Positions 3,961 through 37,856 of a DNA stretch of 39,061 nt are shown here, piece after piece. This DNA comes from Dehalococcoidia bacterium. GTDB lineage: Bacteria > Chloroflexota > Dehalococcoidia > UBA2979. Location: the NCBI GenBank assembly GCA_034420575.1, contig DAOULE010000116.1, forward strand, positions 1 through 39,061, in the 5' to 3' direction. The stretch's first letter is position 1; every line of letters starts with the position of its first letter. Both the position numbers and the translations under genes were made by a program. Below the pieces are notes generated by a model. That model had not been told where the DNA came from. It ran no database searches and worked only from the letters and a program-made list of their open reading frames with translations.

Positions 3961-4605
3961 TCAATCATCCGCAAGTCTCAGAATTGCTTCCCAATCAAGC
4001 GCCTGCCCCGCCTCACGTTCTCTCGTGATCATGTCGAAAATCGCAGGTGCCTTTGACGAATCGATTCCTTCGGCGACGACTCCGACGGCGTCAGCGTACG
4101 CAACCATCAACGAGGTCAGAGTGAAGTACGCCAACAGGAGATAGCGCACGTAGCCTCCGTTGTTGAAGCCTCCATTTCCGCGCGAGAGCGCCAGGGAGGC
4201 GATTGTGGGGTGAGCAAAGGAGTTGAGTTCTCCTTCACTCACGAGGAACGAGTGCCGACTGCGGCTTCCCGCCGCAAGGGATTCGGGCAACGACTCCTGC
4301 ACAAGAGGATCCAACGCAGCTGTAGCTGCCCTGATCTCTGGTGCCATCACGTGCAGCACATCGCCGTCCATCTGCCACGATGCCACGGCCTGAACGTGCA
4401 GGGATGCCTTACGCAGCATGGCCCGGTCGGCGAATTCGCCGTCCACGTGCCATTCTGTGCGTGCGTCCAACTCTCTGTGAGTGGCCAGCAGGTCTCCGAG
4501 TCGTTGCAGTACCTCTTCGCATCTGTCGTTGAGCTGGTGCAGCGCTTCGCTGGTCGAGGCGGGCGGTGGTGTATTCATAGGGCATCTCCGGCCATGAGCA
4601 GTCAA
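3961..4605 (-). CDS. Hypothetical protein (214 aa), distal gene of a coupled pair
   Basis: Long ORF in the lower-GC island. Its start overlaps the stop of the upstream 300-aa ORF by 4 nt (ATGA). No motif I recognise. Confidence 0.55.
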   Translation of the reverse strand: MTAHGRRCPMNTPPPASTSEALHQLNDRCEEVLQRLGDLLATHRELDARTEWHVDGEFADRAMLRKASLHVQAVASWQMDGDVLHVMAPEIRAATAALDPLVQESLPESLAAGSRSRHSFLVSEGELNSFAHPTIASLALSRGNGGFNNGGYVRYLLLAYFTLTSLMVAYADAVGVVAEGIDSSKAPAIFDMITREREAGQALDWEAILRLADD

Positions 4606-5504
4606 TCGTGAGGTTCGCTACGGGTTGTTTGACCGGCGACGAACGAGCGCTCGGCCTCACGCTTTCTCTCCAGCAACTCGATCGCATCATCGAAAGGCCG
4701 TGAGTCCTCGTTCACCGTGATCACAATGACGCCGTATCCAGCTACCATTCGAGCGAGCAGGTCGGCCAGGTAGGCAAGAAAAAATCCGAATGCAAAGGCC
4801 TCGACGTCCCTGGGAGGCTGAATGACGCCGCCGAGGACGGATGACTCGTTCAGCGCGTCTGAATCAACCTTGCAGAAGCGTTCGCTCAGGAAGTTGTACC
4901 AGTTCGCACCCCCGGCCACGACCTCCAGCTTGTCCGCGATCGTCACTCGCTTCGGCCTGCCCTGTCTTTGAACACCGATTTGCCGTCGCCCGCGGAGAAT
5001 CGATCGCTGACGGCCATCGTCGTCGAATGCGACGCCCGACAGACCCTTCAGGGTCTTGGTCACGTCGTATTCGGTGGTGTTCAGGATGCGCTTGAAGTCG
5101 CGCGAGTTCTTGTTTACCGCCAGGTCCGCCCATGACAGCACCGGCCCGGCGCACTCCAGGACCACTCGCAACTGGACCGCCAGCGAGTGCGGGTTGCTCG
5201 ATTGATCCGCCGCAAGTGCGCCAGCACTGTGAAGCAGCGCCTTCTTGAGAAAGAGCCCGCAATGATTCTGGATGTTCACCTGGGCGCCGATCTCATCGGG
5301 GTGGCCGAAGATGTGCGGGAAATCGCTCTCGAAGTCGGCTTCCGAGAGGATCCTGGATATCATCTCGGCCGCTTCGCGAGTGAAGCGGCCCATGGTTTCG
5401 CGGTAGGCGTCCGGATCGGTTACGGGCAGTTGGTTGCCCGACGTCTCCTCAGGCTGAACCCCCGAAGACTGCTGGTCTCTCGCGTTCATCCGGCCTACCA
5501 GCAC
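4602..5504 (-). CDS. Hypothetical protein (300 aa), proximal gene of a coupled pair
   Basis: Long ORF with plausible globular composition and no recognisable catalytic motif. Translationally coupled to 3961..4605. Confidence 0.6.
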   Translation of the reverse strand: MLVGRMNARDQQSSGVQPEETSGNQLPVTDPDAYRETMGRFTREAAEMISRILSEADFESDFPHIFGHPDEIGAQVNIQNHCGLFLKKALLHSAGALAADQSSNPHSLAVQLRVVLECAGPVLSWADLAVNKNSRDFKRILNTTEYDVTKTLKGLSGVAFDDDGRQRSILRGRRQIGVQRQGRPKRVTIADKLEVVAGGANWYNFLSERFCKVDSDALNESSVLGGVIQPPRDVEAFAFGFFLAYLADLLARMVAGYGVIVITVNEDSRPFDDAIELLERKREAERSFVAGQTTRSEPHD

Positions 5505-6678: not shown

Positions 6679-7032
6679 GTGATAGATGTACTCGAAGCCG
6701 TGGCCGCGGACTGGTGGCACTCAGTCACCGTGGGAGTCCTCGTGCTCGCGCTGCTGCTCGAGACCGCCGCGGCGTACGCGAGCCACAACTCCAGCATCGG
6801 CAGCGAAGCCGGCTCACCGCCTGTGCCGAGATGGTCGAAACGGTTGTGGGTCAAGAGCTACGAGCCCAAGCCCAATCACCATCACAACCACCCGCCCCTG
6901 CACTTCCCTGCATTTGACTCTCACGTCGCCGCAGTGCTGCGGGGCATTGCCCGCTTGATGCTGGGGCTGATGTTACTCGCCCGCATTGCTGCGAAGCAGC
7001 CCGCGTTGCCAGCCGTCGACCTCGGGCTCTAG
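6679..7032 (+). CDS. Possible small membrane protein (117 aa)
   Basis: GTG start. Strongly GC3-biased codons in the first half. Two hydrophobic segments (WWHSVTVGVLVLALLLETAAAY and IARLMLGLMLLARIAA). No homolog recognised. Confidence 0.3.
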   Translation: MIDVLEAVAADWWHSVTVGVLVLALLLETAAAYASHNSSIGSEAGSPPVPRWSKRLWVKSYEPKPNHHHNHPPLHFPAFDSHVAAVLRGIARLMLGLMLLARIAAKQPALPAVDLGL

Positions 7033-7626
7033 ACTCCTGCCCCTGGTCGGTGACCCACGAGGAAGTCCGTGTCTACTACTCGCCCGAATCCCCCTACAAG
7101 GGGATGGGAGAGACATACCCGCGAGAGCCGACGATCCTGATTTCGCGTTCGGGACTCCTGCCCCCAGGAGACGAGCCGGTCGACGGCAATCCCGTTCGCG
7201 CCCTCAACACGGACGGGAGATGGGAGCGAGCAAGCGCGTGGAGACTTCATCATCCGATGGCGGTTTCGTTCAACGACGGCTCCGCGAACGACTCGCCGGG
7301 GCCGGGCCTGTTCGCCACCGGGCACTGGATTGCCCGGCGGCGCTATCCTCACTCGGAGACCGCTTGTGGGGAGGGCTGCCATGGCCGTACGCCGACCCAT
7401 CGACGAGACCGGCCGCCCTCGGCGATGAGATATACGAGCGCGACATCCGCGCTGAGGTCGAGGCCGACCACCATGGTGAGTACGTCGCCATCGACGTGGA
7501 CAGCGGCGGCTGGGCTATTGGCGGTGAGTTGCTGGACGCATCGGATCGTCTGCGGGCCGAGCGCCCCGGTGCCGTCGATGTCTGGCTGATCCGCGTCGGC
7601 CACCGACTGTTCCTGCAGGGGCCGGC

Positions 7627-7779
7627 GGCAAGAGCGACCGCGACAACCACGCCAACCAGCTCAATCCGAACCACGATGCCTACTGGCAGTCACGGGGCGA
7701 GGACGAGCGTCCCGATGACTGGGAGGACGAGGATCGCCCGCGGCAGGGCGGCAAGGACCGTCCGCAGCCTAAGAAGTAG
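7627..7779 (+). pseudogene. Second, start-less copy of the NQLNPN..YWQSRG mini-gene
   Basis: Frame 1 reads GKSDRDNHANQLNPNHDAYWQSRGEDERPDDWEDEDRPRQGGKDRPQPKK and ends at TAG 7777-7779. There is no ATG, GTG or TTG between the upstream in-frame stop (7525-7527) and the conserved part. Confidence 0.4.
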
Positions 7780-7956
7780 GCCGTGGGCCCGATCGCGCCC
7801 GAGGACAAGCGGGCGCCCTCGATCTATCGCTCCTGCTGCTAGCCTTGCGTCAAACGTGGCTCGTGCCGATCCTAGGCCCGCCCTAATAGGCCGCTACCCT
7901 CGGAGCCCTACCTGTAGACGGTGACTTGTGATTCCCGAGCGAAGACCTGAGCGACC

Positions 7957-9897
7957 ATGACTCCAGCCGCTGCCTCCGCGCCGGACTGGGACCTGGAGCA
8001 ACTGGAAGTCATCCTCGATGACCCCGCGAGTTGGCAGTTCGTCGTGGCCGGCCCTGGGGCTGGGAAGTCTGCCGTCGCGTGCCAGCGCATCGCCTATCTG
8101 ATTGACGAGGGGGTGCAGCCGTCGCGCATCTTGCTGATCAGCTTCACGCGGACGGCCGTGGCAGAACTGCGAGACCGGATCGTCGCGTATGCGGTGGCGG
8201 GTGAGCGGGCGCGCAGCGTGCGAATCTCGACGATTGACTCGCATGCATGGAGGCTTCGCGTTGGGTTTGAAGATGAGGCGCTGGCGGATCCCCTCGAAGG
8301 TGAGTCGGCTTTCGATCTGAGCATCTCCCGAACGGTCACGCTGTTTCGTGAGAAGGACCCGAGCCTGCTCGACTTCATGTCGCGCGTCGAGCATCTGATC
8401 ATTGATGAAGCGCAGGACGTCGTCGGTGTGCGCGCCGACCTCATGATCGAGATTCTGCTCGCCCTCTCGGATGAATGCGGTGTGACGATCCTGGCCGACC
8501 CGGCTCAGGCGATCTATGGGTTCACAGACGACCAGGACGAGGCGGCGGACTCGGGGAATCTGCTCCTTGAACGCCTCCCGACCGAGAGTCCGCGCAGCTT
8601 CGTCGAGAGGCAGCTGAATGAGATTCACCGCATACAGAACGACAGCCTCGTTGACTTGTTCCGCCGCTCGCGCCAGACGATAGAGCAGCCCGATGGACAC
8701 GAGACCCACGTCGATCGCGTGATCTCCGTCATCCGCGACAACTCTCAGGAGGACCTCGGAGCCACCACGTATGAGAAGGTCGCTGACCTTGTCTCGGACT
8801 CTGAGAGCGACTCTCTGCTGGTTCTCTTCCGCCGACGCTCAGAAGTGCTGACGGCCTCATCCTACTGTTCCAGTTCAGGAGTCCAGCACCGTCTGCGGCT
8901 GTCGGGTCTGCCACCTGTGATTCAGCCATGGATTGGCTGGCTCTTCGCCGAGTACAACGGGGCAACCATCTCGAAGGCAGAGTTCGAGGAGCTCTGGGCG
9001 AGGCGCTCGAGCATCGCAGCCGCCCCACTTGAGGGAGGGCGCCCAGACGGTGCCTGGGCGCTGCTCCACCACCTGGCGGCTGGTGCCGCCGAGGGCACCG
9101 TTGACCTGCACCATCTGCGCAGCCTCCTGTCTCGGTCGCGGCCTCCAGTCGAGGTCTGCCTTCCCGATCCAGGGCTCGGTACGCCAATTCTCGGAACGAT
9201 CCATGCTTCGAAAGGGCGCGAGGCAGAGACTGTTGCCCTGGTCTTGCCTACCACGGCAAACGGATTCGATTCAGACTCAGAAGCCGAGGTTCTTGAGGAA
9301 GGCCGCGTCTACTACGTGGGAGCCACACGAGCGAGAGATGCGCTCCTGACCGCCAACAGCAGCAGCGTGTGGGCCAGCCAACTCGACTCCGGGAGGGTCT
9401 TCAGGAAGCTCCGGAGCGCCGGTCGCAGGCCGCCGCGGGCACAGCTGGAGATTGGGCGCGACGGCGATGTTGACCGCACCGCCCATCTGGGATGGTCCAG
9501 TGGCGTTGAGGTCCAGGCGGTGCTGGCAGAAGCCTCGCGCGACATGCTGTCCGTGCGAGCCGAGAGCCGCGCGGAGGAAGGCTACGACTGGAGGCTGGTG
9601 CTCCAGGTGCCGTCTGGCGCGGGCTCAGCCAGGCGCGTTGAAATAGGGCAGATGAGCAAGGTGTTCCGCTCCGAGATCAGCGCGCTGTGGAGCAGACTGG
9701 ACACTGACAGCACGCTCAAGCCGGGGCACTACATCGAGAACCTCTACCTGTTTGGCGTCACGACGGTGGCACTGACCGAGAGTGAGCGCGACGCCGTGCG
9801 CCAGCCATTCAAGGACAGCGGGTTTGCCCTGGCCCCAGTCGTGAAGGGGTTCCCCGTGGTGCAGTTTCTCTATCGGGGTCGGAGGAGTCAGTGGTAG
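7957..9897 (+). CDS. SF1 UvrD/Rep-like helicase with an uncharacterised C-terminal domain of about 170 aa
   Basis: Walker A VVAGPGAGKSAV, LLISFTRTAVAEL, Walker B/motif II HLIIDEAQDV, C-terminal motifs GTIHASKGREAETVALV and VYYVGATRARDAL. The last roughly 170 aa have no motif I recognise. The stop overlaps the drmA start by 7 nt. Confidence 0.8.
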   Translation: MTPAAASAPDWDLEQLEVILDDPASWQFVVAGPGAGKSAVACQRIAYLIDEGVQPSRILLISFTRTAVAELRDRIVAYAVAGERARSVRISTIDSHAWRLRVGFEDEALADPLEGESAFDLSISRTVTLFREKDPSLLDFMSRVEHLIIDEAQDVVGVRADLMIEILLALSDECGVTILADPAQAIYGFTDDQDEAADSGNLLLERLPTESPRSFVERQLNEIHRIQNDSLVDLFRRSRQTIEQPDGHETHVDRVISVIRDNSQEDLGATTYEKVADLVSDSESDSLLVLFRRRSEVLTASSYCSSSGVQHRLRLSGLPPVIQPWIGWLFAEYNGATISKAEFEELWARRSSIAAAPLEGGRPDGAWALLHHLAAGAAEGTVDLHHLRSLLSRSRPPVEVCLPDPGLGTPILGTIHASKGREAETVALVLPTTANGFDSDSEAEVLEEGRVYYVGATRARDALLTANSSSVWASQLDSGRVFRKLRSAGRRPPRAQLEIGRDGDVDRTAHLGWSSGVEVQAVLAEASRDMLSVRAESRAEEGYDWRLVLQVPSGAGSARRVEIGQMSKVFRSEISALWSRLDTDSTLKPGHYIENLYLFGVTTVALTESERDAVRQPFKDSGFALAPVVKGFPVVQFLYRGRRSQW

Positions 9898-12800
9898 CCC
9901 AGGACCTCTTCCGAGACACCATTCTCGAACGGCTCCGCGAGGACCTTCTGGGGCCGTCGGATGCGCAGGAGGTCATTGCCGACAGGCCGACACAGCGCTA
10001 CAGCACTGGCATCCTCTATCCGCTGGACAGCTATGTTCAGGATGAGGAGGATCAGGACTCCGCCCTCGCGGTCAACGAGAAAGAGGACACGGCTTCGGAG
10101 CCGGACACGAGCGGTGTCCCTCTGCACGCTGCGCTGAAGCCCTCCACGGCTGGGCTTTCATTTGCGGTCGCGCCCGCAGGCGACGGGCGGGCCGCTGCTG
10201 TGGTCTTTGAGATCCGATGCGCGACCTACGAAAGATTCACGGTTGACGAGGACGGCCGGGAGACAGCGGACCCAACCTCAAGCCGCTCCCAGGAACGCTG
10301 GCGGCGAGCCCCGCATGATGCCTCGGTGGCCGTCGAGCTGGTCCCGGGAGAGTTCAGGCAGGACCTGAACTCGGACGGGATGGATGACCTCGAGCTGTAC
10401 GTGCTTGTGTCCCCTCACGCGGGCCTGCTCACCGTCACCGCTGCGCTCTCAAACAAGCGCAGGCGCGGAGACTCACGGGTCTTCGACGAGGCGCAGCATT
10501 TCTTCCAGGTCGAGCTGTCTGCCTCGACCGTGACAGACGGGGAGTTCGCGCCACGCCCGTCCAGGCGCGCGGAGACCGACGACGACAGCCGGAGCGCGGC
10601 GCTCATCTATCGTGACGCCGTTGAGTACGTCGTGGGCCATGGCTGCTCAGCCAGGGCGGTGTTCGCGGGCGATGGCAGTGGGGCACTCCGCGAACTGAAG
10701 ACGGAGTGGATCCCCTCTGTGACGGTCCCCGCCACCAGCGATCAGGGGGATGAGGTCTTCCAAGCGCTGCGCGAAGGCGACGCCTCCCGGCCTCTCGACG
10801 CGGCATGGCTCGCTGAAGCGAGCGAGGCGCACCTGGTGCAGGGGCTCGAGCGGCTCGTGACGGCCTACAGGGAGTGGGTCAGTCGGGAGGAAGGACGCGT
10901 AGACGGGCTGCCAGTGACGATGCGCCCCCAGGCCGGCAAGCACCTCGAGCGGTGCAGGCACGGGGCGGATCGCATGGCCGAGGGCGTCAACGCCATCCGC
11001 GCCGATGCTGAGATCCGCTCGGCCTTCCAGCTGTCGCAAAAGGCCATGAGCCTCCAGTTCGGCTGGCAGCGCGAAGGGGAGAAGCTGGTCTGGCGCCCGT
11101 TCCAGCTCGGCTTTCAGCTTCTCGTGCTCACGTCGCTGGCCGCCCGGGAGCACCCCGGCCGGGAGATCATGGATCTCCTCTGGTTCCCCACGGGCGGAGG
11201 GAAGACAGAGGCCTACCTGGCGCTGACGGCCTTCGCGATCCTGCTGCGTCGGCTGCGGTCCACCGAGGAGGACGACGGCGCCGGCGTTGCCGTTCTGATG
11301 CGCTACACCCTGCGGCTCTTGACCGTCCAGCAGTTCCAGCGTGCGGCCGCGATGATCCTCGCCTGCGAACTGCTGCGGCGGCAGTCACTGGAAACTGGGT
11401 CGGAGACTCCTGACCTGGGCGACGCTCCCATAGGGATCGGCCTCTGGGTTGGCTCCGCCGCGACGCCGAACACCCTCCGGGAAGCTCGGGACCAGAGCGG
11501 GGACTCCCCCAGCACGCATCGCCAGATCGTCGCGTGTCCCGCGTGCGGGGAGACGCTCAAATGGAGCCTCTCCCGATCTGAGTCATCTGTGAGCTGCGAG
11601 TCCGAACCGGGCGTGTGCGAGTTCGCCGGCGTCGCCAGCCTGCCAATCTGGACGATTGACGAGGAGATCTACCGGCACTCTCCGGCCCTCGTGATCGGCA
11701 CGATCGACAAGTTCGCTCAGATCGTCAGGAACATGAGCACCAGGGCGCTCTTCGGGGGGCTCGCGAGCCATGCTCCCCCTGACCTCATCATTCAGGACGA
11801 GCTCCACCTCATCTCCGGGCCTCTCGGTTCGATCGCCGGGCTCTACGAGGTGGCGATCGACGAGCTCTGCCGGCAAGGCGCCGTTCGTCCGAAGATCATC
11901 GGCTCCACGGCGACGATTCGCAGAGCGGAAGACCAGATACAGGCGCTGTTCGACCGGGTGACCTACCAGTTCCCTTCGCCCGGCCTCGACGCAGGCAACT
12001 CCGGCTTCGCGGTGGTTGACGAGGGGCACCCCGGCCGGCTGTACGTCGGCCTGACAACCGCCGGCCGTTCGGCCACCTACATGCTCCAGGCCCTGGCAGC
12101 CTCGCTGCTGCAGGCCGCAGACGAGCCCGGCGCCTCGCCCGAAGAGAGAGACCTGTACTGGACCCTGGTCGTCTATTTCAACTCGCTGCGCGAGCTCGGG
12201 CACGCGCTCCTGCTGATGCAAGACGACGTTCCGGTCTCGATCGGCCAGCTGGGCGCCCGCCGGGGTGAGCAGCCCAGGGAGGTCGGTCCCCCGGCAGAGC
12301 TGACCAGCCGTGTGCGCTCGTACGAGATACGGGACATGCTGGCCCGGCTGGAGACAAGCGCCGGTGCCCCAGGGGCTGTCGATCTCCTGCTCGCATCCAA
12401 CATGATCTCGGTGGGCATGGATGTCTCCCGGCTTGGGCTGATGGTCGTGAACGCCCAGCCCAAGACCCTGTCGGAGTACATCCAGGCGACGAGTCGGGTG
12501 GGGAGGGGCAGCGTTCCCGGGATCATCATCACCATGTACAACAACATGCGCGCCAGGGACCGGTCGCACTACGAGACCTTCGAGACGTGGCACCGCTCTC
12601 TCTATCGGGATGTGGAAGCCACGAGCGTCACGCCCTTCGCGTCGCGGGCGCAGGACAAGGCCATCCATGCGGTCCTCGTTGCCCTGGCGCGGCACCGAGT
12701 TCCCGGAATGGCCGACCGGCCCATCCTCGACGACCTTCGGCGCCCGCAGGTCGAGCAGGCCGCCGCGCTCATTGAGGCGCGCGTCGCACGCGTCGATCCG

Positions 12801-13070
12801 AGCGAGCGCCTCGTGGTCTCCAAGAAGCTCAAGCTCCTCATAGACGAGTGGGCCGGCCGCCCTGACCTCCAGACCTACTGGGACGACTATCAGAAGAAGA
12901 CCAGCCTCCTCCTGTCGGCTGAGCAGTTCGCCGCCACGTTGGCTGGCGATGCCGACCTCGACGCGGGCGGAGCTCGGAGAGCCCTCTGGCCAACCCCGAA
13001 CTCCATGCGCGACGTCGAGCCGGGGACTCCATTCGTGCTCAGGCAAGCGCTGAAGGCCGGGGATAGCTAG
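9891..13070 (+). CDS. drmA: DISARM DrmA-like SF2 (DExH) helicase
   Basis: GTG start preceded by GGAGGAG. Motif I FPTGGGKTEAYL, motif II QDELHLISG, motif III GSTATI, motif V SNMISVGMDVSRL, motif VI QATSRVGR. Long N-terminal extension. Followed immediately by a DUF1998 gene. Confidence 0.85.
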   Translation: MVAQDLFRDTILERLREDLLGPSDAQEVIADRPTQRYSTGILYPLDSYVQDEEDQDSALAVNEKEDTASEPDTSGVPLHAALKPSTAGLSFAVAPAGDGRAAAVVFEIRCATYERFTVDEDGRETADPTSSRSQERWRRAPHDASVAVELVPGEFRQDLNSDGMDDLELYVLVSPHAGLLTVTAALSNKRRRGDSRVFDEAQHFFQVELSASTVTDGEFAPRPSRRAETDDDSRSAALIYRDAVEYVVGHGCSARAVFAGDGSGALRELKTEWIPSVTVPATSDQGDEVFQALREGDASRPLDAAWLAEASEAHLVQGLERLVTAYREWVSREEGRVDGLPVTMRPQAGKHLERCRHGADRMAEGVNAIRADAEIRSAFQLSQKAMSLQFGWQREGEKLVWRPFQLGFQLLVLTSLAAREHPGREIMDLLWFPTGGGKTEAYLALTAFAILLRRLRSTEEDDGAGVAVLMRYTLRLLTVQQFQRAAAMILACELLRRQSLETGSETPDLGDAPIGIGLWVGSAATPNTLREARDQSGDSPSTHRQIVACPACGETLKWSLSRSESSVSCESEPGVCEFAGVASLPIWTIDEEIYRHSPALVIGTIDKFAQIVRNMSTRALFGGLASHAPPDLIIQDELHLISGPLGSIAGLYEVAIDELCRQGAVRPKIIGSTATIRRAEDQIQALFDRVTYQFPSPGLDAGNSGFAVVDEGHPGRLYVGLTTAGRSATYMLQALAASLLQAADEPGASPEERDLYWTLVVYFNSLRELGHALLLMQDDVPVSIGQLGARRGEQPREVGPPAELTSRVRSYEIRDMLARLETSAGAPGAVDLLLASNMISVGMDVSRLGLMVVNAQPKTLSEYIQATSRVGRGSVPGIIITMYNNMRARDRSHYETFETWHRSLYRDVEATSVTPFASRAQDKAIHAVLVALARHRVPGMADRPILDDLRRPQVEQAAALIEARVARVDPSERLVVSKKLKLLIDEWAGRPDLQTYWDDYQKKTSLLLSAEQFAATLAGDADLDAGGARRALWPTPNSMRDVEPGTPFVLRQALKAGDS

Positions 13071-14897
13071 ATGCAGAACGAGCTGGGCGACGTGAGGCGA
13101 AGCCAGGTCATCACATCCCACGGTCCCGGCTCGATCATTGACTTTCGGGCTGGCGGGCATGGCGGCGCGGGCGTCTCCGTGGTTGGGGCAGGGCTGGAGG
13201 AGTGGGACCGCTGGGCGCAGCCGCCCGGACTGGCGAACCCTCAGACCATCTATGAGCCAAGGCTTCAGAACGCGCTCGGCGTGGACGGGTTTCGCCTGCC
13301 TCCGGTGTCGCCCCAGATCGCTCCCAACACCTACTCGCGTCGCACAGGACGGCTCGTCGGCGTGCGCTATCCGCGGTGGCTCCAGTGTCCGCGCTGCCAC
13401 CTGATTGGGGAGAGCAGGCGGTGGAGCGAGGATCCCGGAGACCCTGCCCTGTACTGCGCTCCCTGCTCTGACCGGGCAGGAGGGCGGAATCGAGTTCATG
13501 CAGTTCCAGTCCGCTTCATCGTGCTCTGCGAGAAGGGTCACCTGGACGAGTTCCCGTGGGACTGGTGGGTCAGGCACGATGAGGACTGCAAGCAGCGACG
13601 CGACCTGAGGCTGTCGGGGAGTTCCGCGGCCGGTCTCGCCGGCCTGGTCCTCACCTGCGAGCGATGCGGAGCTGCGAGGTCGATGGAGGGCTGCTTCGGG
13701 CCAGACGCCATTCCGGGCAACTGCCAGGGGCGGCGACCGTGGCTGGGCACCGACGCTGACGAGCAATGCTCCGAGCAGCCGCGAGTTGTGCAGCGCGGGG
13801 CATCGAACATCTACTTCTCGGTGGTTGAGTCGGCTCTCGACATTCCACCGTGGTCGGATGAGCTGCAGAAGAGGATCGGGATGCGCTGGGCCATGCTGGA
13901 GCGGGCGGCGGACACGGCCGCGCGGCTCGTGCTGATTGACGCGCTCGGGCTCCCTGAGAGCCTCGGCATGCCAGCCGACGAGTTGGCATCGGTCATAGAG
14001 GATCGTGTCAGCCGGCTCAGGTCCCCTGGGCGCAACCTTCGCTTCGAGGAATATCAGCAGTTCGTCCAGCACTCCGAGCCATTCGGCGAGAACACCGAGT
14101 TCGAGGTCCGCCCGTTGGCTCCGCCGCCAGAGCTGGCGGGATGGCTGGAGATGGTGGTGCGCGCGACGCGACTCCGCGAGGTGAAAGCCAATGTTGGCTT
14201 CACGCGCATCGTTCCGCCGACGCCTGGCGACAACGAGAGGGTGGCTCCCATCTCCTTGGAGCGCCTGAACTGGCTGCCTGCGGTCGAGAATCGGGGTGAG
14301 GGGGTGTTCCTGCAGCTCAAGCCCGAACGGGTGCGGGAGTGGGAGCAGCGACCAGCCGTGCAAGAGAGGGTCGCTGGCCTGCAGGAGGCCTACGGGCGGT
14401 GGTGGCAGCAGCGCGGCATGGACGGTGATCCACCGAGGCCTCTCACCGCGAGGCTGCTGCTTGTGCACAGCCTGGCGCATGCTCTCATCCGCCAACTCGC
14501 ACTCAGCTGCGGCTACGGTAGCGCATCCCTCCGGGAGCGCATCTACGTCGACTCCGGCGAGTGGGAGATGGCCGGCCTGCTGGTGTTCACCTCATCACCG
14601 GATGCCGACGGCACGCTCGGAGGGCTGGCGAGGCAAGCTGAGGCGCGGAACCTCGTTCCCCTCTTCGAGGACTGCCTGGCAGGGATGGCGTGGTGCTCAT
14701 CCGACCCGCTGTGCTCTCAGGGGGTTCACGCCAGCACCGCAGCCTCCAACGGCGCTGCGTGCCATGCGTGCATGCTCGCCTCCGAGACATCGTGCGAGGA
14801 GTTCAACGCGTGTCTCGATCGAGTCATGCTGGTCGGGACGGTAGAGCACCCTGAAATGGGGTATTTCTCAGACTACCTGAGTGCCACGCGGGAATAG
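13071..14897 (+). CDS. drmB: DISARM DrmB-like DUF1998 protein
   Basis: ATG directly after the drmA stop. Zn-ribbon-like CPRCH...CAPC, then CEKGHLDEFPWDWW, and a C-terminal Cys cluster CSSDPLC...CHACMLASETSCEEFNACLDR characteristic of DUF1998. Confidence 0.85.
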   Translation: MQNELGDVRRSQVITSHGPGSIIDFRAGGHGGAGVSVVGAGLEEWDRWAQPPGLANPQTIYEPRLQNALGVDGFRLPPVSPQIAPNTYSRRTGRLVGVRYPRWLQCPRCHLIGESRRWSEDPGDPALYCAPCSDRAGGRNRVHAVPVRFIVLCEKGHLDEFPWDWWVRHDEDCKQRRDLRLSGSSAAGLAGLVLTCERCGAARSMEGCFGPDAIPGNCQGRRPWLGTDADEQCSEQPRVVQRGASNIYFSVVESALDIPPWSDELQKRIGMRWAMLERAADTAARLVLIDALGLPESLGMPADELASVIEDRVSRLRSPGRNLRFEEYQQFVQHSEPFGENTEFEVRPLAPPPELAGWLEMVVRATRLREVKANVGFTRIVPPTPGDNERVAPISLERLNWLPAVENRGEGVFLQLKPERVREWEQRPAVQERVAGLQEAYGRWWQQRGMDGDPPRPLTARLLLVHSLAHALIRQLALSCGYGSASLRERIYVDSGEWEMAGLLVFTSSPDADGTLGGLARQAEARNLVPLFEDCLAGMAWCSSDPLCSQGVHASTAASNGAACHACMLASETSCEEFNACLDRVMLVGTVEHPEMGYFSDYLSATRE

Positions 14898-15609
14898 TCT
14901 CTTGGGGACTGCGCGGGATCTCGTCGAGCTCGAGAGAGCCCTCAGGGCCGAAGGGGCGTTTGACCCGTTCGCCCCTGCGGGGCATGGCGGCCTTGGAGAG
15001 TCCCCCGCCGCTGCATCGCTGATAGAGCACCTCGGCAGGGTCAACTTCTCTGATCCAGAGCGGACGCTGAGGCTGTGCCTGCAGGCCCTGAGCGTTCAGC
15101 GCGAAGAGCTCACCACCAGCGCCTCAGAAGCCGAACTGGTCGCCACGCTCCCTCCGGGGCTGCCAGGGCTGGCGAGGACGACAGCTCAGGTCGTGTCTGA
15201 GATGCTGCGCCCCCCGCTTGGGGAGGTGATCCTGCTGGGCTACGAGTTGACTGACCCGAGCACAATGAACCTCTTGGTGCAGGCTGAAGCCGCAGGTGCG
15301 GATGTGATCGCGATCTGCGACCGGACACGCGGCGCCGCGGAGCGGGTCCTCGAGCTGGGCCTCCACCGAGCGAGGGTCTTTCAGGATCGTGAGCGGCCAG
15401 ACGGACCCCCGTACGCCTCCATGCACGCGAAGTGCCTCTTGGTCGACGGGCGGGATCTGCTCGTCACGTCCGCCAACTTCACGTTTCACGGGCTTCACGG
15501 GAACATCGAGGTCGGTGTGAGGTTGTCTGGAGCCCCGGCCGCCGAGGCTCGCCACATCTTCTCGCATCTGGTGGAGAAGCGGATCGTGGAAGAGGTTGGA
15601 GCTTCTTGA
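14881..15609 (+). CDS. drmC: DISARM DrmC-like phospholipase-D-family (single HKD) nuclease
   Basis: HKD motif HAKCLLVDGRDLLVTSANFT. Overlaps the drmB 3' end by 17 nt. The start (GTG 14881) is uncertain. Confidence 0.8.
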   Translation: MPRGNSLLGTARDLVELERALRAEGAFDPFAPAGHGGLGESPAAASLIEHLGRVNFSDPERTLRLCLQALSVQREELTTSASEAELVATLPPGLPGLARTTAQVVSEMLRPPLGEVILLGYELTDPSTMNLLVQAEAAGADVIAICDRTRGAAERVLELGLHRARVFQDRERPDGPPYASMHAKCLLVDGRDLLVTSANFTFHGLHGNIEVGVRLSGAPAAEARHIFSHLVEKRIVEEVGAS

Positions 15610-15623
15610 GGCACCCGTCGCCT

Positions 15624-15648
15624 CCCGACCCTGGTGCCGAGGGTCGGG
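15624..15648. terminator. Hairpin between the convergent drmC and C5-methyltransferase genes
   Basis: Perfect 9-bp stem cccgaccct / agggtcggg with a 7-nt loop, in the 84-bp gap between two convergent stops. No clear U-tract. Confidence 0.4.
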
Positions 15649-15693
15649 GAGCCGAGCGCCTGTAGCAGAGAGGGTCGCGCCCGGCCGTCTCCG

Positions 15694-17058
15694 TCACAGC
15701 GGGAGGGGCTGCTGTCCTGCCCCCCCTTCAGGCACCGAGGACGGGGACTCGCCTTCGCTCAGCAGTCTCCTCGCAATCTCATGCACCACGTCGACGTGAA
15801 CCGCGTTGCCCAGGGCCTTGAATGTCGCGTCCCGCGAGGCTGGAACATGGAAGTCTGACGGGAAGCCCTGCAAGCGAAGTCCCTCAGCCCGGGACAGGTG
15901 TCGGCGCTCGGGGCCGAGGATGGGAATCTGGGTGCTGGTCATCGCGACCAGAGAAGGGCTGTTCGCGTATCTCTTCACCCGCAAGCCCGAGGGCCGGAAT
16001 TGGAGGATGTGCCGCCACAGGTCTCGCTCCTCGCCTTGACAGTTCCACTCCAGCTTCCGAAGAGAGGGAGGGAAGGCCTTCAGGTCGCTGACCCACCCGG
16101 CAGGAAGCCGATCGTGAACTGTCGAGAGCCAGGCGCGGTTCTTCCTGATGAACTGCACCTTCCACTGAGGAAACTCCACGGCCTCGGTCCGCGCATAGCG
16201 GGGCAGAAGGTTGAACTCTTCCCAGAGGTCCGCCCTTCCGTTGCTCGACGGGGCGAACCCAACCTCCTGAGCCCGCGCCTCAGCCCAGGGCGTCATCTCT
16301 TCGTAGGGGTAGTTCGCATCGAACTCATCACCCCAGATCGGAAACGAGGGCAGCGTAACCTGGCCCTCCGGCAGTGCCCTGAGGAATGCGTTCCAGTGCT
16401 CGATGCAGCGCTCGTGCTGCTCGCCGATCGCCGTCTCGTCGCGGTCCCGGTCAGACAGCTCATCCTGCCGCTGGACCACTTGAGCCATCGAGGTCGCAGC
16501 CTTCCTGTCCCTTGGAGGAAACGGGCTCGCTGGGAGGTCCGCGAGCGAGGCGACCGCGAAGAATCGTTCCCTGTGGTGAGGGTGTCCGAGGTGGTGGGGG
16601 GAGAGAAGACCGTCGCCGCCACTGGTGACATGCAGAGTCCCGTGAACGTGGTACTCGAGGTCTTCCAGGCTCTCCTTGACTACCGACCACGTCCGTCCTT
16701 GGTCGTGGCGCTCGAAGTTCCCGACATTCTCCAGGATCACGACGCTGGGACTGTGCTTCTCGATGACCTCTCGGATCTCGTGAAAGAGAGTCCCGATCGT
16801 CTGGTCCTTCAGGCCGGCCTGAGCGCCGGACTTGGAGAACGGCTGGCACGGAAAGCCGGCGCAGAGCACATCGTGCGGAGGGACCTGGTCCTTCACGAGT
16901 CTGATGTCGCCTTGGACCTCCGGCCCGTCAGGGAAGTTCTTGCTGTAGACCTCTTGGAGTTGGCTGTCGATCTCCGAGGCAAAGACGCACTCGTGCCCAA
17001 GACGCTCGAGTGCCAGGCGGAAGCCGCCGAGGCCAGCGAAGAGGTCGATGAACCTCAT
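15694..17058 (-). CDS. DNA (cytosine-5)-methyltransferase (DrmMII-like)
   Basis: Motif I IDLFAGLGGF, motif IV GFPCQPFS, motif VI ILENV, RERFF, QGFPSDF, motif X LGNAVHVDV. Confidence 0.9.
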   Translation of the reverse strand: MRFIDLFAGLGGFRLALERLGHECVFASEIDSQLQEVYSKNFPDGPEVQGDIRLVKDQVPPHDVLCAGFPCQPFSKSGAQAGLKDQTIGTLFHEIREVIEKHSPSVVILENVGNFERHDQGRTWSVVKESLEDLEYHVHGTLHVTSGGDGLLSPHHLGHPHHRERFFAVASLADLPASPFPPRDRKAATSMAQVVQRQDELSDRDRDETAIGEQHERCIEHWNAFLRALPEGQVTLPSFPIWGDEFDANYPYEEMTPWAEARAQEVGFAPSSNGRADLWEEFNLLPRYARTEAVEFPQWKVQFIRKNRAWLSTVHDRLPAGWVSDLKAFPPSLRKLEWNCQGEERDLWRHILQFRPSGLRVKRYANSPSLVAMTSTQIPILGPERRHLSRAEGLRLQGFPSDFHVPASRDATFKALGNAVHVDVVHEIARRLLSEGESPSSVPEGGAGQQPLPL

Positions 17059-17256
17059 CAGCAGAACGTCCCTGAGCAGTGCAGCGTTGGAACGCTACGC
17101 ACGGTTGCATCCCTCCACCTCGTGACTTGACCCGTCACTCCTGACCGTAACGGCCTGGCTCCCAATAGGCAGTGCGTCAAGGGGGCACCTAAGGGTTCGG
17201 GGGAGGTCATCTGCATCGCCACGTAGGTCGGGGGAGTCTGCTGGGCCGAAGGTCGA

Positions 17257-17517
17257 CTACTGTGCGTCCGCCGAGTCGAGTTGCGCCCCCGTCTGGCGCA
17301 GAACCGTGATGGTGCGGTGACCGTCGTCGCCGTCCTCAGTCTCTGCCCAAAAGTCGTCCAAGGAGCGATAGAAGGAGATTGTCTCGTTCCCGAGCACCAG
17401 TGTTGTGCCGTCATCGAGTTCGAGGATGTCGAGTTCTACTCCCCCGCCGGAGTTCCATGTGTCTACATTGCGGAGGTGCGCTGCGCGATCGGTGCTATCC
17501 ATGTGGTGAGTGTACAC
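17257..17517 (-). CDS. Small acidic hypothetical protein (81-86 aa) between the two methyltransferase genes
   Basis: ORF co-directional with both MTase genes. Start is GTG 17517 or ATG 17502. No recognisable motif. Confidence 0.4.
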   Translation of the reverse strand: MYTHHMDSTDRAAHLRNVDTWNSGGGVELDILELDDGTTLVLGNETISFYRSLDDFWAETEDGDDGHRTITVLRQTGAQLDSADAQ

Positions 17518-17572
17518 CCCGACACTTCCAGCGCCGCGCGGGGCCGCTCGGCCCTACCGTCAGCACGGAGCG

Positions 17573-19291
17573 TCAACTCACGGCGGACGTCCGAGGATCG
17601 ATCTCTCGCTCGCTCGCACGTATATGCTCCGTGATGGTTCGCAGGTCCAGTGCACCGAGGTCCCACCCTTCTCGGAATCCCCGTCGGAGCATCTCGAGGT
17701 AGAGGTGGCTGGGCGTGACGCCCGGTTCCATCAGGAGTTCGTCGACGGCCGCGGAGATTTCAGAGTCGCGCGGTACTACATGGTGCGTACGGGCTTCACC
17801 TGGCTTCATCGTGAGCACGAGATCGAGTGTTGCGACATTCTCGAACCCCGAGGCTAGGCCCTTTACTGACCGCTGCCCCTTGTCGAGCACGGCCGTGTGT
17901 TCCGGAACGACTTGAAGGCCAGCGTCGCGGATCGCCCGTTGCACGAGCTGCCACATGGCACCAGCGCTATTGCCAAAGATCATCGAGATGCAGCCTGCAT
18001 CCTTCAGCACCCTCTTGCACTCCGCGAGTGCCTCAGTCAGGAGTTGCTCGTAGCGGGCGGCCGATCGGTGCGAGTCGGTCTGGACGCGATCGACCACGGC
18101 CTCTGCAGCAGGGTCCGTCGTAGAGCCGAGCCATGCTTCGTGAAAGAGGTTCATGTCCGAGTAGAAGATGTTCGATCCGAACGGGGGGTCGGTGAAGATG
18201 TAGTCGACCGAGTTGTCAGGCAGCGGCAGTTCCGCAGCGCTGGCGAGGTCGTACGTCACATCGCCGGCGCTGCCGTTCCGGAATAGCGGACCGCCCTCCC
18301 GGTGGGCCCGAATCCAGTCATCGGACCGAATGACTGCCTCCACCTTGCGGGAGAACAGGTCGAGCACGTTCCACTCATAGAACACCGGGGCCACGTAGTA
18401 GTTCGCGTTGGCGGCGTTGAGAGGCCGCTTCCTGGACCACTGGTAGCGCTTGCTGGCCCTCGTGAGGATCGCTGTGAACGCGAAGAGCAGCTTCTGCCTG
18501 ATGGCCTCATCCGTGGTCTCGTCGATCGCGGACTTGAGAGCCCCAAGGACCAACAGATTGCGTCGAGAGAAGAATCGTGCGGTCGAAGTCAGCCCGTGGC
18601 GACCGAGCGCCGATGCGATGAACATCTGCCGCGCCTTGTCGATCTCGAGATCAGGCCAATCGATATCGGTCGCAGAGAGACCCACGGTCGGCTCGGACCA
18701 AGCCTGCTCCAGTTGCTTGTCGCTGCATGAGCATCTGATCCAGTCAACCACGGGTTCTTCGTTGAGCTTCCGAGATCTGCTCGTCACCAGCCCTTTGCAG
18801 TCCGGGCATCTCATCTCGCGCTTGTCCCACTCGGCGGATTCGAGCGAGCGGTAGAAGTTGACGGAGCGCCTGCAGGTGGCGCATTGGACCGTCGAACTCC
18901 ACACGGTCTTCGCAAGCTCGCCGGTAGACCCGCACGCGCCGCACTCGACCGCGTAGACATTGCCCAGGCGGTCATGAGTGGAGCGGACGACGCTGGCGGC
19001 TGCTTCCCGAAGCTGGTCAGGTTCGACCAGATTCACGTAGTTCGCCCCGATGTGCCTGCCCAGAACCGAGACATCGAAGAGTCTCGCGTTCCGTCCAAGC
19101 AGTGTCGCGGCGACGCCTGTCATCCCGGATCCGGCGAAAGGATCGGCGACGGTGTCACCCGGCGAGGAGAAGGCCTCAATGAAGGGTAGAATCGCCGGGA
19201 GCGGCACCTTCGTGAGGTAGGCGTGCGCCATGTATACGGGGTCGCTACGCTTCGCCTTGATGGTTTCTGGAAGCAGCCTCGGGTCACCCAT
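17573..19291 (-). CDS. Amino (N6-adenine or N4-cytosine) DNA methyltransferase with Zn-ribbon-containing insert
   Basis: Motif I region HAYLTKVPLP...GDTVADPFAGSGMTGVAA lies at the N-terminus. Motif IV DYIFTDPPFGSNIFY lies about 300 aa later. Between them are Cys pairs (CGACGS...CATCRRS and CPDCKG). Confidence 0.85.
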   Translation of the reverse strand: MGDPRLLPETIKAKRSDPVYMAHAYLTKVPLPAILPFIEAFSSPGDTVADPFAGSGMTGVAATLLGRNARLFDVSVLGRHIGANYVNLVEPDQLREAAASVVRSTHDRLGNVYAVECGACGSTGELAKTVWSSTVQCATCRRSVNFYRSLESAEWDKREMRCPDCKGLVTSRSRKLNEEPVVDWIRCSCSDKQLEQAWSEPTVGLSATDIDWPDLEIDKARQMFIASALGRHGLTSTARFFSRRNLLVLGALKSAIDETTDEAIRQKLLFAFTAILTRASKRYQWSRKRPLNAANANYYVAPVFYEWNVLDLFSRKVEAVIRSDDWIRAHREGGPLFRNGSAGDVTYDLASAAELPLPDNSVDYIFTDPPFGSNIFYSDMNLFHEAWLGSTTDPAAEAVVDRVQTDSHRSAARYEQLLTEALAECKRVLKDAGCISMIFGNSAGAMWQLVQRAIRDAGLQVVPEHTAVLDKGQRSVKGLASGFENVATLDLVLTMKPGEARTHHVVPRDSEISAAVDELLMEPGVTPSHLYLEMLRRGFREGWDLGALDLRTITEHIRASEREIDPRTSAVS

Positions 19292-19358: not shown

Positions 19359-19601
19359 GTGATGACGGCACCACGCTCGGCGACAGCAACGCAAGGGCGT
19401 GCCGCCTTCGGACGTCGCGTGCGCTCGCTCCGCGAAGCTGCGGGACTCTCCCAGGAAGCCCTTGCGGAGCAGTCAGGTCTGCACCGGACGTACATCAGCA
19501 GCCTGGAGCGTGGCCGCCGTAATGTCGGACTCGACAACATCCTCCGGCTTGCGGCGGCGCTTGGTGTTGAACCCGGCGAGTTGCTGGAGTCCTGGTCCTA
19601 A
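19359..19601 (+). CDS. XRE-family HTH protein resembling an R-M controller (C) protein
   Basis: 80 aa. HTH LSQEALAEQSGLHRTYISSLERGRRNVGLDNILRLAAALGV resembles C-proteins. The stop TAA overlaps the ATG of the next gene by 1 nt. Confidence 0.8.
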   Translation: MMTAPRSATATQGRAAFGRRVRSLREAAGLSQEALAEQSGLHRTYISSLERGRRNVGLDNILRLAAALGVEPGELLESWS

Positions 19602-21091
19602 TGGGATTCAAGGAGGACGCTGACTTCGCGCGCTTCCTCTCGATGGGCGCGATCGGCACTGCCGCGGTCGCTGAGCATCTCGGTTCCGACCTTGGGCACG
19701 CACCGGTTGAGCTTGAACGCTACGCGATGGCGAACAAGGTCTGGCAAACGAAGGTCAAGCGGTTTCGGCTGCCGGACCTCGTCTGCACTCGCTGTGGTGT
19801 CCGCGTCGAGTCACGCGCGAAGTCGGCTCTGTCCCTGGTCCTGTCTCACTCTGACACTCCGGGACGCGAGTGGGACGGTGGCGGCATGCGGGATCACGAC
19901 CTCTTCGCGTTCATCCGGGTCGAACTCGGTTCGTCGGATCCGCGCGTAGGGGTGCCGGCCTACTTCGAGACCTTCGCCCTGCGCCAAACCGTCGAGCTTG
20001 CACGGCGCAGCGCACCGAAGGCGGCATCGGAAGGCTCTGAGGTGACCTTGAAGTGGCCCAGCTGGGTACCAGGGCGCAGTGGCCGAGTGACGGGAATCGA
20101 CACGGATGGTCGTGTCGTCTGTCAGTGGGACAACGGCCGTACGTACCGGTACGGGCAATGGAGGAAGTGGGGAGGGGATGGAAACCTGTACGTCACCGTG
20201 GGGGACCACTTCACTGGTGGAGGAACCTTCGTCGCTGGTGTTGTCGAGGAGCCTTCAACCCTGTCGTGCCCTGGGGAGACGTGGGATCTTGCTGCCTCAC
20301 TCCAGACTCTTGACGAGACGGAGCGCTACGCGGCGGTCAAGGTAGCCGGCCTGCTGGGCCGGAACGAACTGGCGGCCCTTATCGCCGCGCTTGCCCGGAG
20401 TGACGATTGGCGGCTGCGTCTCGAGGCATACGGCAGCCTTGCCCGACTGGAGCATGATCCCTGGACCGACCGGATTGCCGAGGTCGCTGCGGACGAAGAG
20501 GTCGAGCCTGAGCAGAGGATGGAGGCAGTGTTCCTGCTCAGCGAGATTCCTAATCCCGCGGCGACGACAGCACTGGGCGCGATCGCAAGGAACCATGGCC
20601 TTGGCAGCGAGGTACGCGCAGCGGCAGCGTGGGGCCTTGGGCAAGGCGCAGCGCCAAGAGTGGAATTGCTCCTCCCGCTCGTGTCGGATGACGACCCGCT
20701 CGTCGCGCTCCACGCGATCACGGCTATCGAGCAGATCACGGACGGTCAAGCGTCGAAACTAGTGGCGTTGCTCGGCGCCGAGCCCAGGGTTGCCACGGGT
20801 GCCGCAAGAGTCCTTCAGAGGCTGGGCCGCGTTGAGGAACTCCTGGATGCCTTCGAGACGGGCGGCACTCAGCGCCTGTGGGCATTGAGGGCATTGGGCG
20901 ATCTGCCGCCCGATGAGGTTCGGGCGCGCGCTGGTTCGCGCCTCACAGACGAACTCGTGGAGTTGCTTGCGCCGCTCTGGGCGGGGCAGAACGATTGGCT
21001 GCGGTCCGAGGACGGGAAGGCCGGGCTAGACTCGCTCGACGTCCAGAAGGTTCGGGCGAACCCGAGCGTCCCTTGGACCTCGAGCCGGTGA
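19601..21091 (+). CDS. 496-aa protein: PD-(D/E)xK-like N-terminal domain, beta-rich middle, HEAT/ARM-like repeat C-terminus (candidate effector or restriction nuclease)
   Basis: N-terminus has ELERY...RLPDLVCTRCGVRVESRAK (D59, E70-x-R/K). The C-terminal half has repeated helical units: ERYAAVKVAGLLG, WRLRLEAYGSLARL, EVRAAAAWGLGQG, PLVALHAITAI, RLWALRALGDL. Coupled to the upstream C-like gene. Confidence 0.7.
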   Translation: MGFKEDADFARFLSMGAIGTAAVAEHLGSDLGHAPVELERYAMANKVWQTKVKRFRLPDLVCTRCGVRVESRAKSALSLVLSHSDTPGREWDGGGMRDHDLFAFIRVELGSSDPRVGVPAYFETFALRQTVELARRSAPKAASEGSEVTLKWPSWVPGRSGRVTGIDTDGRVVCQWDNGRTYRYGQWRKWGGDGNLYVTVGDHFTGGGTFVAGVVEEPSTLSCPGETWDLAASLQTLDETERYAAVKVAGLLGRNELAALIAALARSDDWRLRLEAYGSLARLEHDPWTDRIAEVAADEEVEPEQRMEAVFLLSEIPNPAATTALGAIARNHGLGSEVRAAAAWGLGQGAAPRVELLLPLVSDDDPLVALHAITAIEQITDGQASKLVALLGAEPRVATGAARVLQRLGRVEELLDAFETGGTQRLWALRALGDLPPDEVRARAGSRLTDELVELLAPLWAGQNDWLRSEDGKAGLDSLDVQKVRANPSVPWTSSR

Positions 21092-36559: not shown

Positions 36560-36664
36560 GGGGGGAGTGTCGCGCGGGTGGCGGGTGGGGGCAACGCGGC
36601 GCGCGATCGCTAGCGCGTGCCCCGAGTAACGTTTAGCGTACGCACCGGCGGCAGGTGGTGTGCG

Positions 36665-37855: not shown

Positions 37856-37856
37856 A

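Follow-up and report, generated by a model that had tools for sequence, protein, structure and literature searches.

A candidate DISARM lineage headed by a UvrD-like helicase, from a contig of a Dehalococcoidia bacterium

We analysed a stretch of 39,061 nucleotides (nt) from a Dehalococcoidia bacterium (contig DAOULE010000116.1, positions 1 to 39,061), referred to here as the window, and within it an operon at 7957-17058 that resembles the anti-phage defence system DISARM. On the plus strand a uvrD-like helicase gene, drmA, drmB and drmC follow one another in tight packing, and a convergent gene for a C5 DNA methylase comes after them. The features of the operon are as follows.

7957-9897, plus strand: lead gene, predicted superfamily 1A (SF1A) helicase of the UvrD/PcrA/Rep type (646 amino acids; Pfam, motifs, AlphaFold2 (AF2) model and Foldseek)
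9376-9894, plus strand: predicted alpha/beta C-terminal domain of the lead helicase, residues 474-646 (AF2 model)
9891-13070, plus strand: DrmA, superfamily 2 (SF2) DExH helicase of the YprA family (1059 amino acids, GTG start)
13071-14897, plus strand: DrmB, DUF1998/MZB zinc-binding partner of DrmA (608 amino acids)
14881-15609, plus strand: DrmC, phospholipase D (PLD)-family nuclease with a single HKD motif (242 amino acids from the GTG at 14881)
15623-15649, no strand assigned: GC-rich hairpin between the stop codons of drmC and the methyltransferase gene (RNA fold)
15694-17058, minus strand: C5 cytosine DNA methyltransferase (MTase), convergent (454 amino acids)

An earlier annotation made from the letters alone (the sequence-only reading) had given five open reading frames (ORFs) here, and our ORF map reproduced their coordinates exactly. 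It had also described all four plus-strand genes as tightly coupled. The GTG start of drmA does overlap the stop of the lead gene by 7 nt, and the gap from drmA to drmB is 0 nt; the third junction, between drmB and drmC, hinges on the start codon, being a 17-nt overlap with the GTG at 14881 and a 4-nt gap with the start at 14902 (235 amino acids) that an independent gene call assigns on an identical metagenome contig. Hidden Markov model (HMM) E-values of 1e-25 to 1e-273 exclude chance as the origin of the operon ORFs. The hairpin, which lies within the 84-nt convergent gap, has a stem of about 10 base pairs (CUCCCGACCCU...AGGGUCGGGGAG), and the 60-nt fold that contains it has an energy of -31.2 kcal/mol (z -2.0 against shuffles). 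It is likely, on weak evidence, a bidirectional terminator without a T-tract, and a consensus terminator scan did not call it. Scans for sigma-70 promoters and T-tract terminators gave nothing above shuffle expectation and are uninformative at 65% GC.

The first gene had been described as a clear UvrD/Rep-type helicase, and this description is borne out. The 646-residue protein matches PF00580 (UvrD-helicase, E 8e-25), PF13245 and PF13361, with a helicase core at about residues 1-470; its 1B region is reduced, and residues 95-121 are modelled with low confidence. It carries the motifs GPGAGKS32, DEAQD150, DPAQAIYGF181, IHASKGRE415 and VGATRA454, and SF1 motifs I, II, III, V and VI do not vary among 48 aligned homologues (53-83% identity). 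When the full-length AF2 model (pLDDT (predicted local distance difference test) 81, predicted template modelling score (pTM) 0.81) was searched with Foldseek, UvrD, PcrA and Rep came out on top (E 1e-14 to 1e-12, about 16% identity), with AdnB, RecD and GajB (3.5e-9) ranked below them. A profile of the lead family gave a similar picture against PDB, with PcrA and UvrD at 1e-18 to 1e-14 and PcrA at 1e-18. The NCBIfam equivalog models for uvrD, pcrA and rep give it 56-68 bits against cutoffs above 900, implying that it is not the orthologue of a housekeeping helicase. By its motifs and the RecA-like 1A/2A fold of the model, the lead gene encodes a genuine SF1A helicase of the UvrD type. Enzymes of the SF1A group move 3'-to-5' along single-stranded DNA (ssDNA).

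The C-terminal part of the protein, which the sequence-only reading had left as a domain of unknown function, keeps that description. It forms a separate alpha/beta domain of about 170 residues (474-646), modelled by AF2 at pLDDT 94 and pTM 0.87. No Pfam match was found and no PADLOC match even at E<=10, and Foldseek gave nothing significant in PDB (best E 0.16, TM<=0.22) or in BFVD (best E 0.29). We considered a reading as a PD-(D/E)xK nuclease and dropped it, the motif pattern not being matched and Foldseek returning nothing. A phmmer search recovered just 124 matches among 1.84 billion cluster representatives. The full-length ones (about 600-1240 amino acids) bear the domain at the C-terminal end, and the others are short and apparently fragmentary; ten long matches were scanned, and all ten are UvrD-like, with N-terminal extensions. 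On the sequence comparisons, the lead protein is thus shown as a member of a distinct SF1A family, compact, with intact catalytic motifs and a private C-terminal domain.

Other members of the family vary at the N terminus. P0211 (1243 amino acids) has an N-terminal MzaE/AbiU-like region (PADLOC MzaE, 340 bits) fused to the UvrD-like helicase and the C-terminal domain, and further members carry N-terminal extensions of 100-350 residues, for example a 929-residue Azospirillum protein (L003:5180-7969).

The sequence-only reading had placed this helicase where DrmE or DrmD would be expected and had proposed a profile comparison of the 646-residue protein with both. That comparison has now been run and gives no recognisable homology to either. 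Among the best 25 of the 43 PADLOC families matched by the full-length protein, none is DrmE or DrmD and all but one are GajB; all 15 NCBIfam matches are SF1 helicase models, with no DrmE or DrmD; and fragments covering the insert and the C-terminal domain match zero PADLOC families at E<=10. As a control for DrmE we used a protein found by a DrmA-alignment scan of IMG/VR contigs (L115:4225-6813, 862 amino acids), which lies directly upstream of a DrmA homologue and gives a match to the PADLOC DrmE model PDLC02635 at E 2.8e-11, a distant match by a protein other than the characterised one of B. paralicheniformis. All seven of its database relatives carry PF24957, a domain absent from the window's lead protein and from its best 120 homologues, in which only UvrD-type Pfam domains were found. 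With hhalign, the profile of the UvrD-like family against that of the DrmE-like family gave a probability of 0.25%, and the UvrD-like family against the single control sequence gave 0.1%; the DrmE-like consensus has neither a Walker A nor a DExx motif. The DrmD models also work on controls (1410 bits on L116, and annotated drmD loci), and no window ORF scanned with Pfam and PADLOC matches DrmD or SNF2. As judged by sequence models, the window locus has no DrmE upstream of drmA, as class 2 DISARM would, nor the SNF2 DrmD and N6-adenine DrmMI of class 1, and these comparisons support the conclusion that neither DrmE nor DrmD can be recognised in the lead gene.

One other candidate DrmE proxy was dropped as a control. 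An 801-residue gene on L. plantarum pMK02 (L008, in the order MTase-X-DrmA-DrmB) drew no match from PADLOC, NCBIfam or Pfam; its homologues number only 8, all of them unnamed, and it does not resemble the UvrD-like family. Its presence in the DrmE position shows only that the lead gene is highly variable.

The remainder of the operon is what had been proposed, a real DrmA/DrmB/DrmC triad with a convergent C5 MTase, according to PADLOC, NCBIfam, Pfam, PDB and motifs. DrmA, the SF2 helicase expected of any DISARM class (pfam00271), scores 680 bits on PADLOC DrmA. Its 909 bits on NCBIfam DISARM_DrmAS fall marginally short of the curated cutoff, 950. Against the solved DrmA of Serratia (7s9v_A) the match is at E 2e-146, and the motifs GGGKT435, DELH636 and TAT673 are present. 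DrmB, encoded as a separate DUF1998/MZB gene directly 3' of drmA, scores 501 bits on NCBIfam DrmB_fam (cutoff 240), matches PF09369 and, across its full length, 7s9v_B (DrmB, E 1e-86), and bears four CxxC motifs. DrmC has PF13091 (PLDc_2) at 43 bits, above cutoff, 77 bits on PADLOC DrmC and 90 bits on NCBIfam DrmC_I, under the cutoff of 133, with one HxK(x)4D motif (HAKCLLVD, residue 182). The C5 MTase, 84 nt from the drmC stop, matches PF00145 over its full length at 216 bits; in PADLOC it scores 286 bits as DruM, 228 as type II MTase and 166 as DrmMII, and its set of catalytic motifs is complete, with FAGLG7 (FxGxG), PCQ70 and ENV110. From these matches it is presumed to be a self-marking equivalent of DrmMII.

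A survey of gene neighbourhoods, suggested with the sequence-only reading and carried out here, shows the association of the UvrD-like gene with DrmA and DrmB to be strongly conserved. A search with the lead helicase found 1147 proteins at E<=1e-5, the best 120 of which are about 586-742 amino acids long and 54-94% identical to it. Two close loci (L001 and L002, 64% and 59% identity) have the same order of UvrD-like gene, DrmA, DrmB and DrmC, with a C5 methylase upstream. Using one genome per GTDB species and tblastn with the window proteins, we then surveyed 79 helicase loci at 32-59% identity. Their hosts include Alpha-, Beta- and Gammaproteobacteria (among them Pseudomonas, Xanthomonas, Paracoccus and Rhizobium), Myxococcota, Acidobacteriota, Planctomycetota, Verrucomicrobiota, Elusimicrobia, Spirochaetia and two methanogenic archaea. 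Downstream sequence of at least 5.2 kb was available at 70 loci, and 69 of them encode both DrmA and DrmB. The distance from the helicase to the start of DrmA is at most 150 nt in 63 of the 70, and in 66 DrmB adjoins DrmA. The percent identity of the helicase also tracks that of its partners, with r = 0.94 for DrmA and r = 0.92 for DrmB.

The DrmA proteins themselves reflect this partnership. In a neighbour-joining tree of 103 DrmA sequences, one split parts 76 UvrD-linked DrmA from 24 with other partners; the DrmA of L085 falls on the UvrD-linked side, and its UvrD-like gene is found on the same contig after a rearrangement. Only L007 and L096, which have very distant UvrD-like genes, lie outside that side. 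UvrD-linked DrmA proteins make up a single clade, separate from class 1 and the remaining DrmA. Searches seeded with DrmA gave the same association from the other end: among plasmids, the 8 records whose DrmA is closest (39-50% identity) all carry the helicase, either just upstream of it or close by, and the UvrD-like/DrmA order occurs in 6 of 26 IMG/VR loci. The survey shows that the UvrD-like family lies almost always directly upstream of one specific DrmA-DrmB clade.

Around this core the other modules vary. The gene after DrmB is a fusion of a NERD nuclease to an SF1 helicase in 45 of 64 evaluable loci and a PLD DrmC in 7, the other 12 having a different gene or none, so that the window, with its PLD DrmC, represents a minority form of the wider family. 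The nuclease module after DrmB is thus shown to be interchangeable. The fusions are Nhi-like and 540-565 residues long (L023, L028 at 16888-18573, L043, L052, L090 and L003), and with one of them in the DrmC slot such operons encode three helicases. Upstream, the neighbour seen most often is a C5 methylase (20 of 67 loci). Within a distance of 10 kb, 26 of 79 loci have one, as do 8 of the 9 evaluable closest relatives (at least 50% identity). DrmA-DrmB also occurs behind other lead modules, namely DrmD with an MmeI-like methylase (class 1), type III Mod/Res, a NERD-helicase, a giant sigma-70-family protein and orphan proteins, implying that the DrmAB core is highly modular.

Several of these combinations were seen in single loci or small sets. 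In five IMG/VR loci (L100, L102, L104, L106 and L110) the Mod and Res genes of a type III restriction-modification (R-M) system directly precede DrmA-DrmB-DrmC (PADLOC MTase_III 409 bits, REase_III 400 bits), a combination with the DISARM core that is apparently undescribed. A Tsukamurella plasmid (L007, 4816-21126) encodes a C5 MTase, a RelA/SpoT-like protein of 464 amino acids, a distant UvrD-like gene and DrmA, together with DUF1998, a DEAD helicase and an R-M subunit M. On a Streptomyces plasmid (L011, 4117-14049) a 1273-residue "sigma-70 family" protein is accompanied by DrmA, DrmB and a small "DNA helicase". An Azospirillum plasmid (L003, 14813-15415) has the ssDNA ADP-ribosyltransferase DarT directly 3' of the UvrD-like gene, DrmA, DrmB and NERD-helicase, and a Tn3 transposase follows.

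The composition of the window points to a foreign origin for the operon. GC content at third codon positions (GC3) is 0.92-0.97 in host genes and 0.65-0.83 in the genes from about 4.0 to 21.3 kb, implying a foreign island; neither a tRNA gene nor an integrase was found. Related loci adjoin EcoRII, Vsr, HNH/ScoMcrA, AspBHI/Mrr, integrases, transposases and DarT. Two minus-strand ORFs, 3961-4605 and 4602-5504, lie at the island's left edge; they overlap by 4 nt and have no Pfam or PADLOC match, and the larger, 4602-5504, also has no sequence match in PDB. From sequence they may be an uncharacterised island gene pair.

To the right of the operon a second methylase, of the N6/N4 type (17573-19291, minus strand, 572 amino acids, DPPF motif), lies 5' of the C5 MTase and outside the operon; PADLOC scores it 302 bits as type II MTase and 244 bits as PglXI. 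An acidic ORF of 86 residues (17257-17517, minus strand) lies between the two methylases, and a divergent HEAT-repeat protein of 496 residues is encoded at 19601-21091 on the plus strand. None of these three genes is conserved in related loci.

Outside the island, an islet at 36617-38441 has a GC content of 0.59 and a GC3 of about 0.68. Its first gene (36617-37855, plus strand, 412 amino acids) matches Septu PtuA (8ee4_A, E 1.4e-9) and the N termini of OLD/ABC ATPases, and the abutting ORF (37857-38441, plus strand, 194 amino acids) has no PDB match. By these matches the islet may be a separate, Septu-like two-gene defence system.

Four further ORFs were set aside as artefacts. The antisense ORFs 11583-14495 (minus strand) and 15898-17130 (plus strand) are products of high GC with an atypical GC-by-position profile. 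ORFs 6986-7924 (plus strand, 312 amino acids) and 17058-17414 (minus strand, 118 amino acids) are rich in Arg, Pro, Ser and Thr, have flat or atypical GC-by-position profiles and were not called by an independent gene finder. The plus frame of ORF 6986-7924 does hold a short protein-like stretch at about 7400-7600 (…EIYERDIRAEVEADHHGEYVAIDVDSGGWAIGGELLDASDRLRAERPGAVDVWLIRVGH), just 5' of the operon, which judging by its letters might be a small uncalled gene, encoding for example an antitoxin or a regulator; what the independent gene caller places there is an 84-residue ORF on the opposite strand.

In summary, we put at roughly 0.75 the probability that the window carries a horizontally acquired, DISARM-type, R-M-linked anti-phage operon whose first gene is an integral, co-evolving component rather than a chance neighbour or a homologue of DrmE or DrmD. 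From sequence comparison it appears to belong to a distinct, coherent and widespread DISARM lineage with a UvrD-like accessory motor and a predicted defence function, not to a categorically new kind of system. In such an operon the C5 methylase would mark host DNA as self, and DrmAB, like the solved class 1 complex, would use single-stranded ends to engage invading DNA that is unmodified. The UvrD-like motor would fill the accessory-motor slot, which class 1 gives to the SNF2 protein DrmD and class 2 to DrmE. Moving 3'-to-5' on ssDNA from nicks or ends at the expense of ATP, it could make or extend ssDNA for DrmAB and hand the DNA to the nuclease, and the C-terminal domain (residues 474-646) might dock it onto DrmAB. 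The DNA to which DrmAB binds has single-stranded 5' overhangs, and methylation inhibits DrmAB. Both tested classes can do without DrmC, and class 2 requires drmE, drmA and drmB (PMC9142583; preprint 10.1101/2021.12.28.474362).

Several considerations weigh against this interpretation. That the operon acts in defence, that the helicase is essential, the polarity of the helicase and its contact with DrmAB are all things that we infer. The loci were gathered through the helicase, so that 69 of 70 means that the helicase implies DrmAB and not the reverse. The scores of DrmA (909 against 950) and DrmC (90 against 133) lie under the NCBIfam cutoffs, implying a divergent lineage, and with a C5 methylase in only 26 of 79 loci, self-marking by methylation may not be family-wide. 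The PADLOC result for the full-length lead protein covers the best 25 of 43 families, and because its C-terminal domain has no structural neighbour in PDB or BFVD, the role given to that domain is a guess.

Three other explanations need to be set against the integral-component reading. The helicase could be an independent defence or repair protein, GajB-like or a stand-alone UvrD paralogue, that happens to sit beside a class 2 DISARM lacking DrmE. The best PADLOC matches of the lead protein are indeed GajB profiles (81 bits), and unrelated systems do sit side by side in defence islands. One published wording, moreover, makes class 2 DrmABC plus DrmMII with drmE only "on occasion" (preprint 10.1101/2021.12.28.474362), which would turn the window locus into class 2 DISARM plus an extra gene; PADLOC requires drmE (PMC9252829). 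The GajB matches, however, cover only universal helicase motifs (residues 14-99 and 412-472), there is no GajA, OLD or TOPRIM partner, and the upstream ORFs have no Pfam or PADLOC match. A bystander would also hardly adjoin DrmAB in 69 of 70 loci across phyla, vary with DrmA at r = 0.94, accompany a dedicated DrmA clade, or have its stop overlapping the drmA start. We consider this explanation very improbable.

We find it just as hard to credit that the 646-residue protein and DrmE are remote homologues, by way of a degenerate SF1 fold or a shared C-terminal domain, which would make the locus an ordinary class 2 system with an ancestral-looking DrmE. Both genes lie directly upstream of drmA, their products are of similar size (646 residues, with relatives up to about 790, against about 790-860), and similarity at the level of the fold can escape HMMs. 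Yet the profile-profile probability is 0.25%, and 0.1% against the single control sequence; the DrmE-like consensus lacks Walker A and DExx; the PADLOC DrmE model is silent on the lead-protein fragments at E<=10; and the search of 1.84 billion representatives with the C-terminal domain, of which ten long matches were scanned, gave no identified DrmE. Least probable of all is that the operon is a DNA-repair module, a UvrD-like helicase paired with a YprA/MrfA-like one and a nuclease, and not an immune system. The YprA family does include the repair factors MrfAB (PMC7797055), and UvrD is itself a repair helicase. But no repair helicase matches DrmA and DrmB nearly as well as the DISARM-specific models and the solved structure of the DISARM complex do, and the encoding of DrmA and DrmB as two genes is a feature of the DISARM branch (PMC12458937). 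The operon, furthermore, lies in a low-GC3 island with two methylases, and its relatives are found on plasmids and IMG/VR contigs and beside restriction enzymes, integrases and transposases.

Within the integral-component reading, a stronger form is about evenly balanced: that the UvrD-like helicase, its C-terminal domain being a new fold, and its dedicated DrmAB clade make up a third, phylogenetically coherent DISARM class, with an essential SF1A motor in place of DrmE or DrmD, a swappable nuclease and optional methylation. If it is true, most members would discriminate foreign DNA without an R-M-like mark. To our knowledge it is unclear how DISARM stops phage and what DrmD and DrmE contribute, DrmE having no recognisable domains. 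An SF1A 3'-to-5' ssDNA translocase in the DrmE/DrmD slot would offer a biochemically tractable handle on this accessory function, one that could be worked on with point mutants, with assays of polarity and by mapping interactions made through the private C-terminal domain. Natural swapping of modules (PLD or NERD-helicase, with or without methylase) around a fixed helicase trio should likewise help to separate sensing from effector steps. Exchange of modules is expected in defence systems; the strength of the linkage and the enzymology are what make this lineage a useful entry to the mechanism of DISARM.

The sequence-only reading had held the architecture to lie outside the characterised DISARM classes. 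In agreement with it, full-text literature searches, which did not extend to the original DISARM paper, where a passing mention is possible, returned no description of a UvrD-led DISARM, and the supplements of the YprA-family paper mention neither UvrD, NERD nor DrmE. Current annotation also passes the architecture by. Among the best 25 of 43 families in a PADLOC model scan, the lead gene matches only partial GajB-type profiles, and RefSeq, in those plasmid entries that we examined, names DrmA of the UvrD-linked clade "helicase-related protein". A widespread system is thus probably under-counted.

Among known systems, class 2 DISARM is close in layout. As Ofir et al. reportedly described in 2018, its order in Bacillus paralicheniformis is drmE-drmA-drmB-drmC-drmMII. 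The window shares with it the split DrmA and DrmB, the PLD DrmC, the C5 methylase and one large gene directly upstream of drmA, and the window DrmA is closest to the NCBIfam "short" DrmA model. It differs in that the upstream gene is an SF1A UvrD-like helicase, catalytically intact by its motifs, and not DrmE; in that the methylase is convergent rather than co-directional; in that DrmA and DrmC fall under curated cutoffs; and in that UvrD-linked DrmA forms a clade of its own. With class 1 (drmD-drmMI-drmA-drmB-drmC in Serratia; 7s9v, 7s9w) it shares the DrmABC core and a second ATP-dependent motor upstream, but that motor is SF1A UvrD-like rather than SNF2, no DrmMI of the MmeI/PglX type lies inside the operon, and DrmA scores 639 bits on the "long" DrmA model against 909 on the short one.

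Outside DISARM, Gabija also places a UvrD-family SF1 helicase, GajB, in anti-phage defence, and GajB profiles give the best PADLOC matches. GajB, however, lacks the C-terminal domain and ranks in Foldseek (3.5e-9) well below UvrD, PcrA and Rep (1e-14); the GajB profile matches are partial, and no GajA-like ORF (OLD ATPase/TOPRIM) lies beside the operon. An Nhi-like NERD-nuclease/SF1-helicase fills the DrmC slot in 45 of 64 relatives, whereas the window carries a PLD DrmC there. The remaining comparison is with ARMADA type II, which consists of the SNF2 protein ArmA, the PglX-like MTase ArmB, the YprA helicase ArmC and the GajB-like UvrD helicase ArmD, and which is the only described methylase-linked defence operon in which a UvrD-family helicase is essential to a YprA-family one (PMC12458937). 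ArmC is a single polypeptide of another YprA clade, with fused DUF1998 and Vsr nuclease, and ArmD is the last gene and has an N-terminal RelE-like domain, in a system with SNF2 and a PglX-type methylase. The window operon shows none of these traits; it has no SNF2 protein, its DrmA and DrmB are split, and its UvrD-like gene comes first and has no N-terminal extension. ARMADA type II is the nearest functional precedent for the window operon, in an otherwise different architecture.

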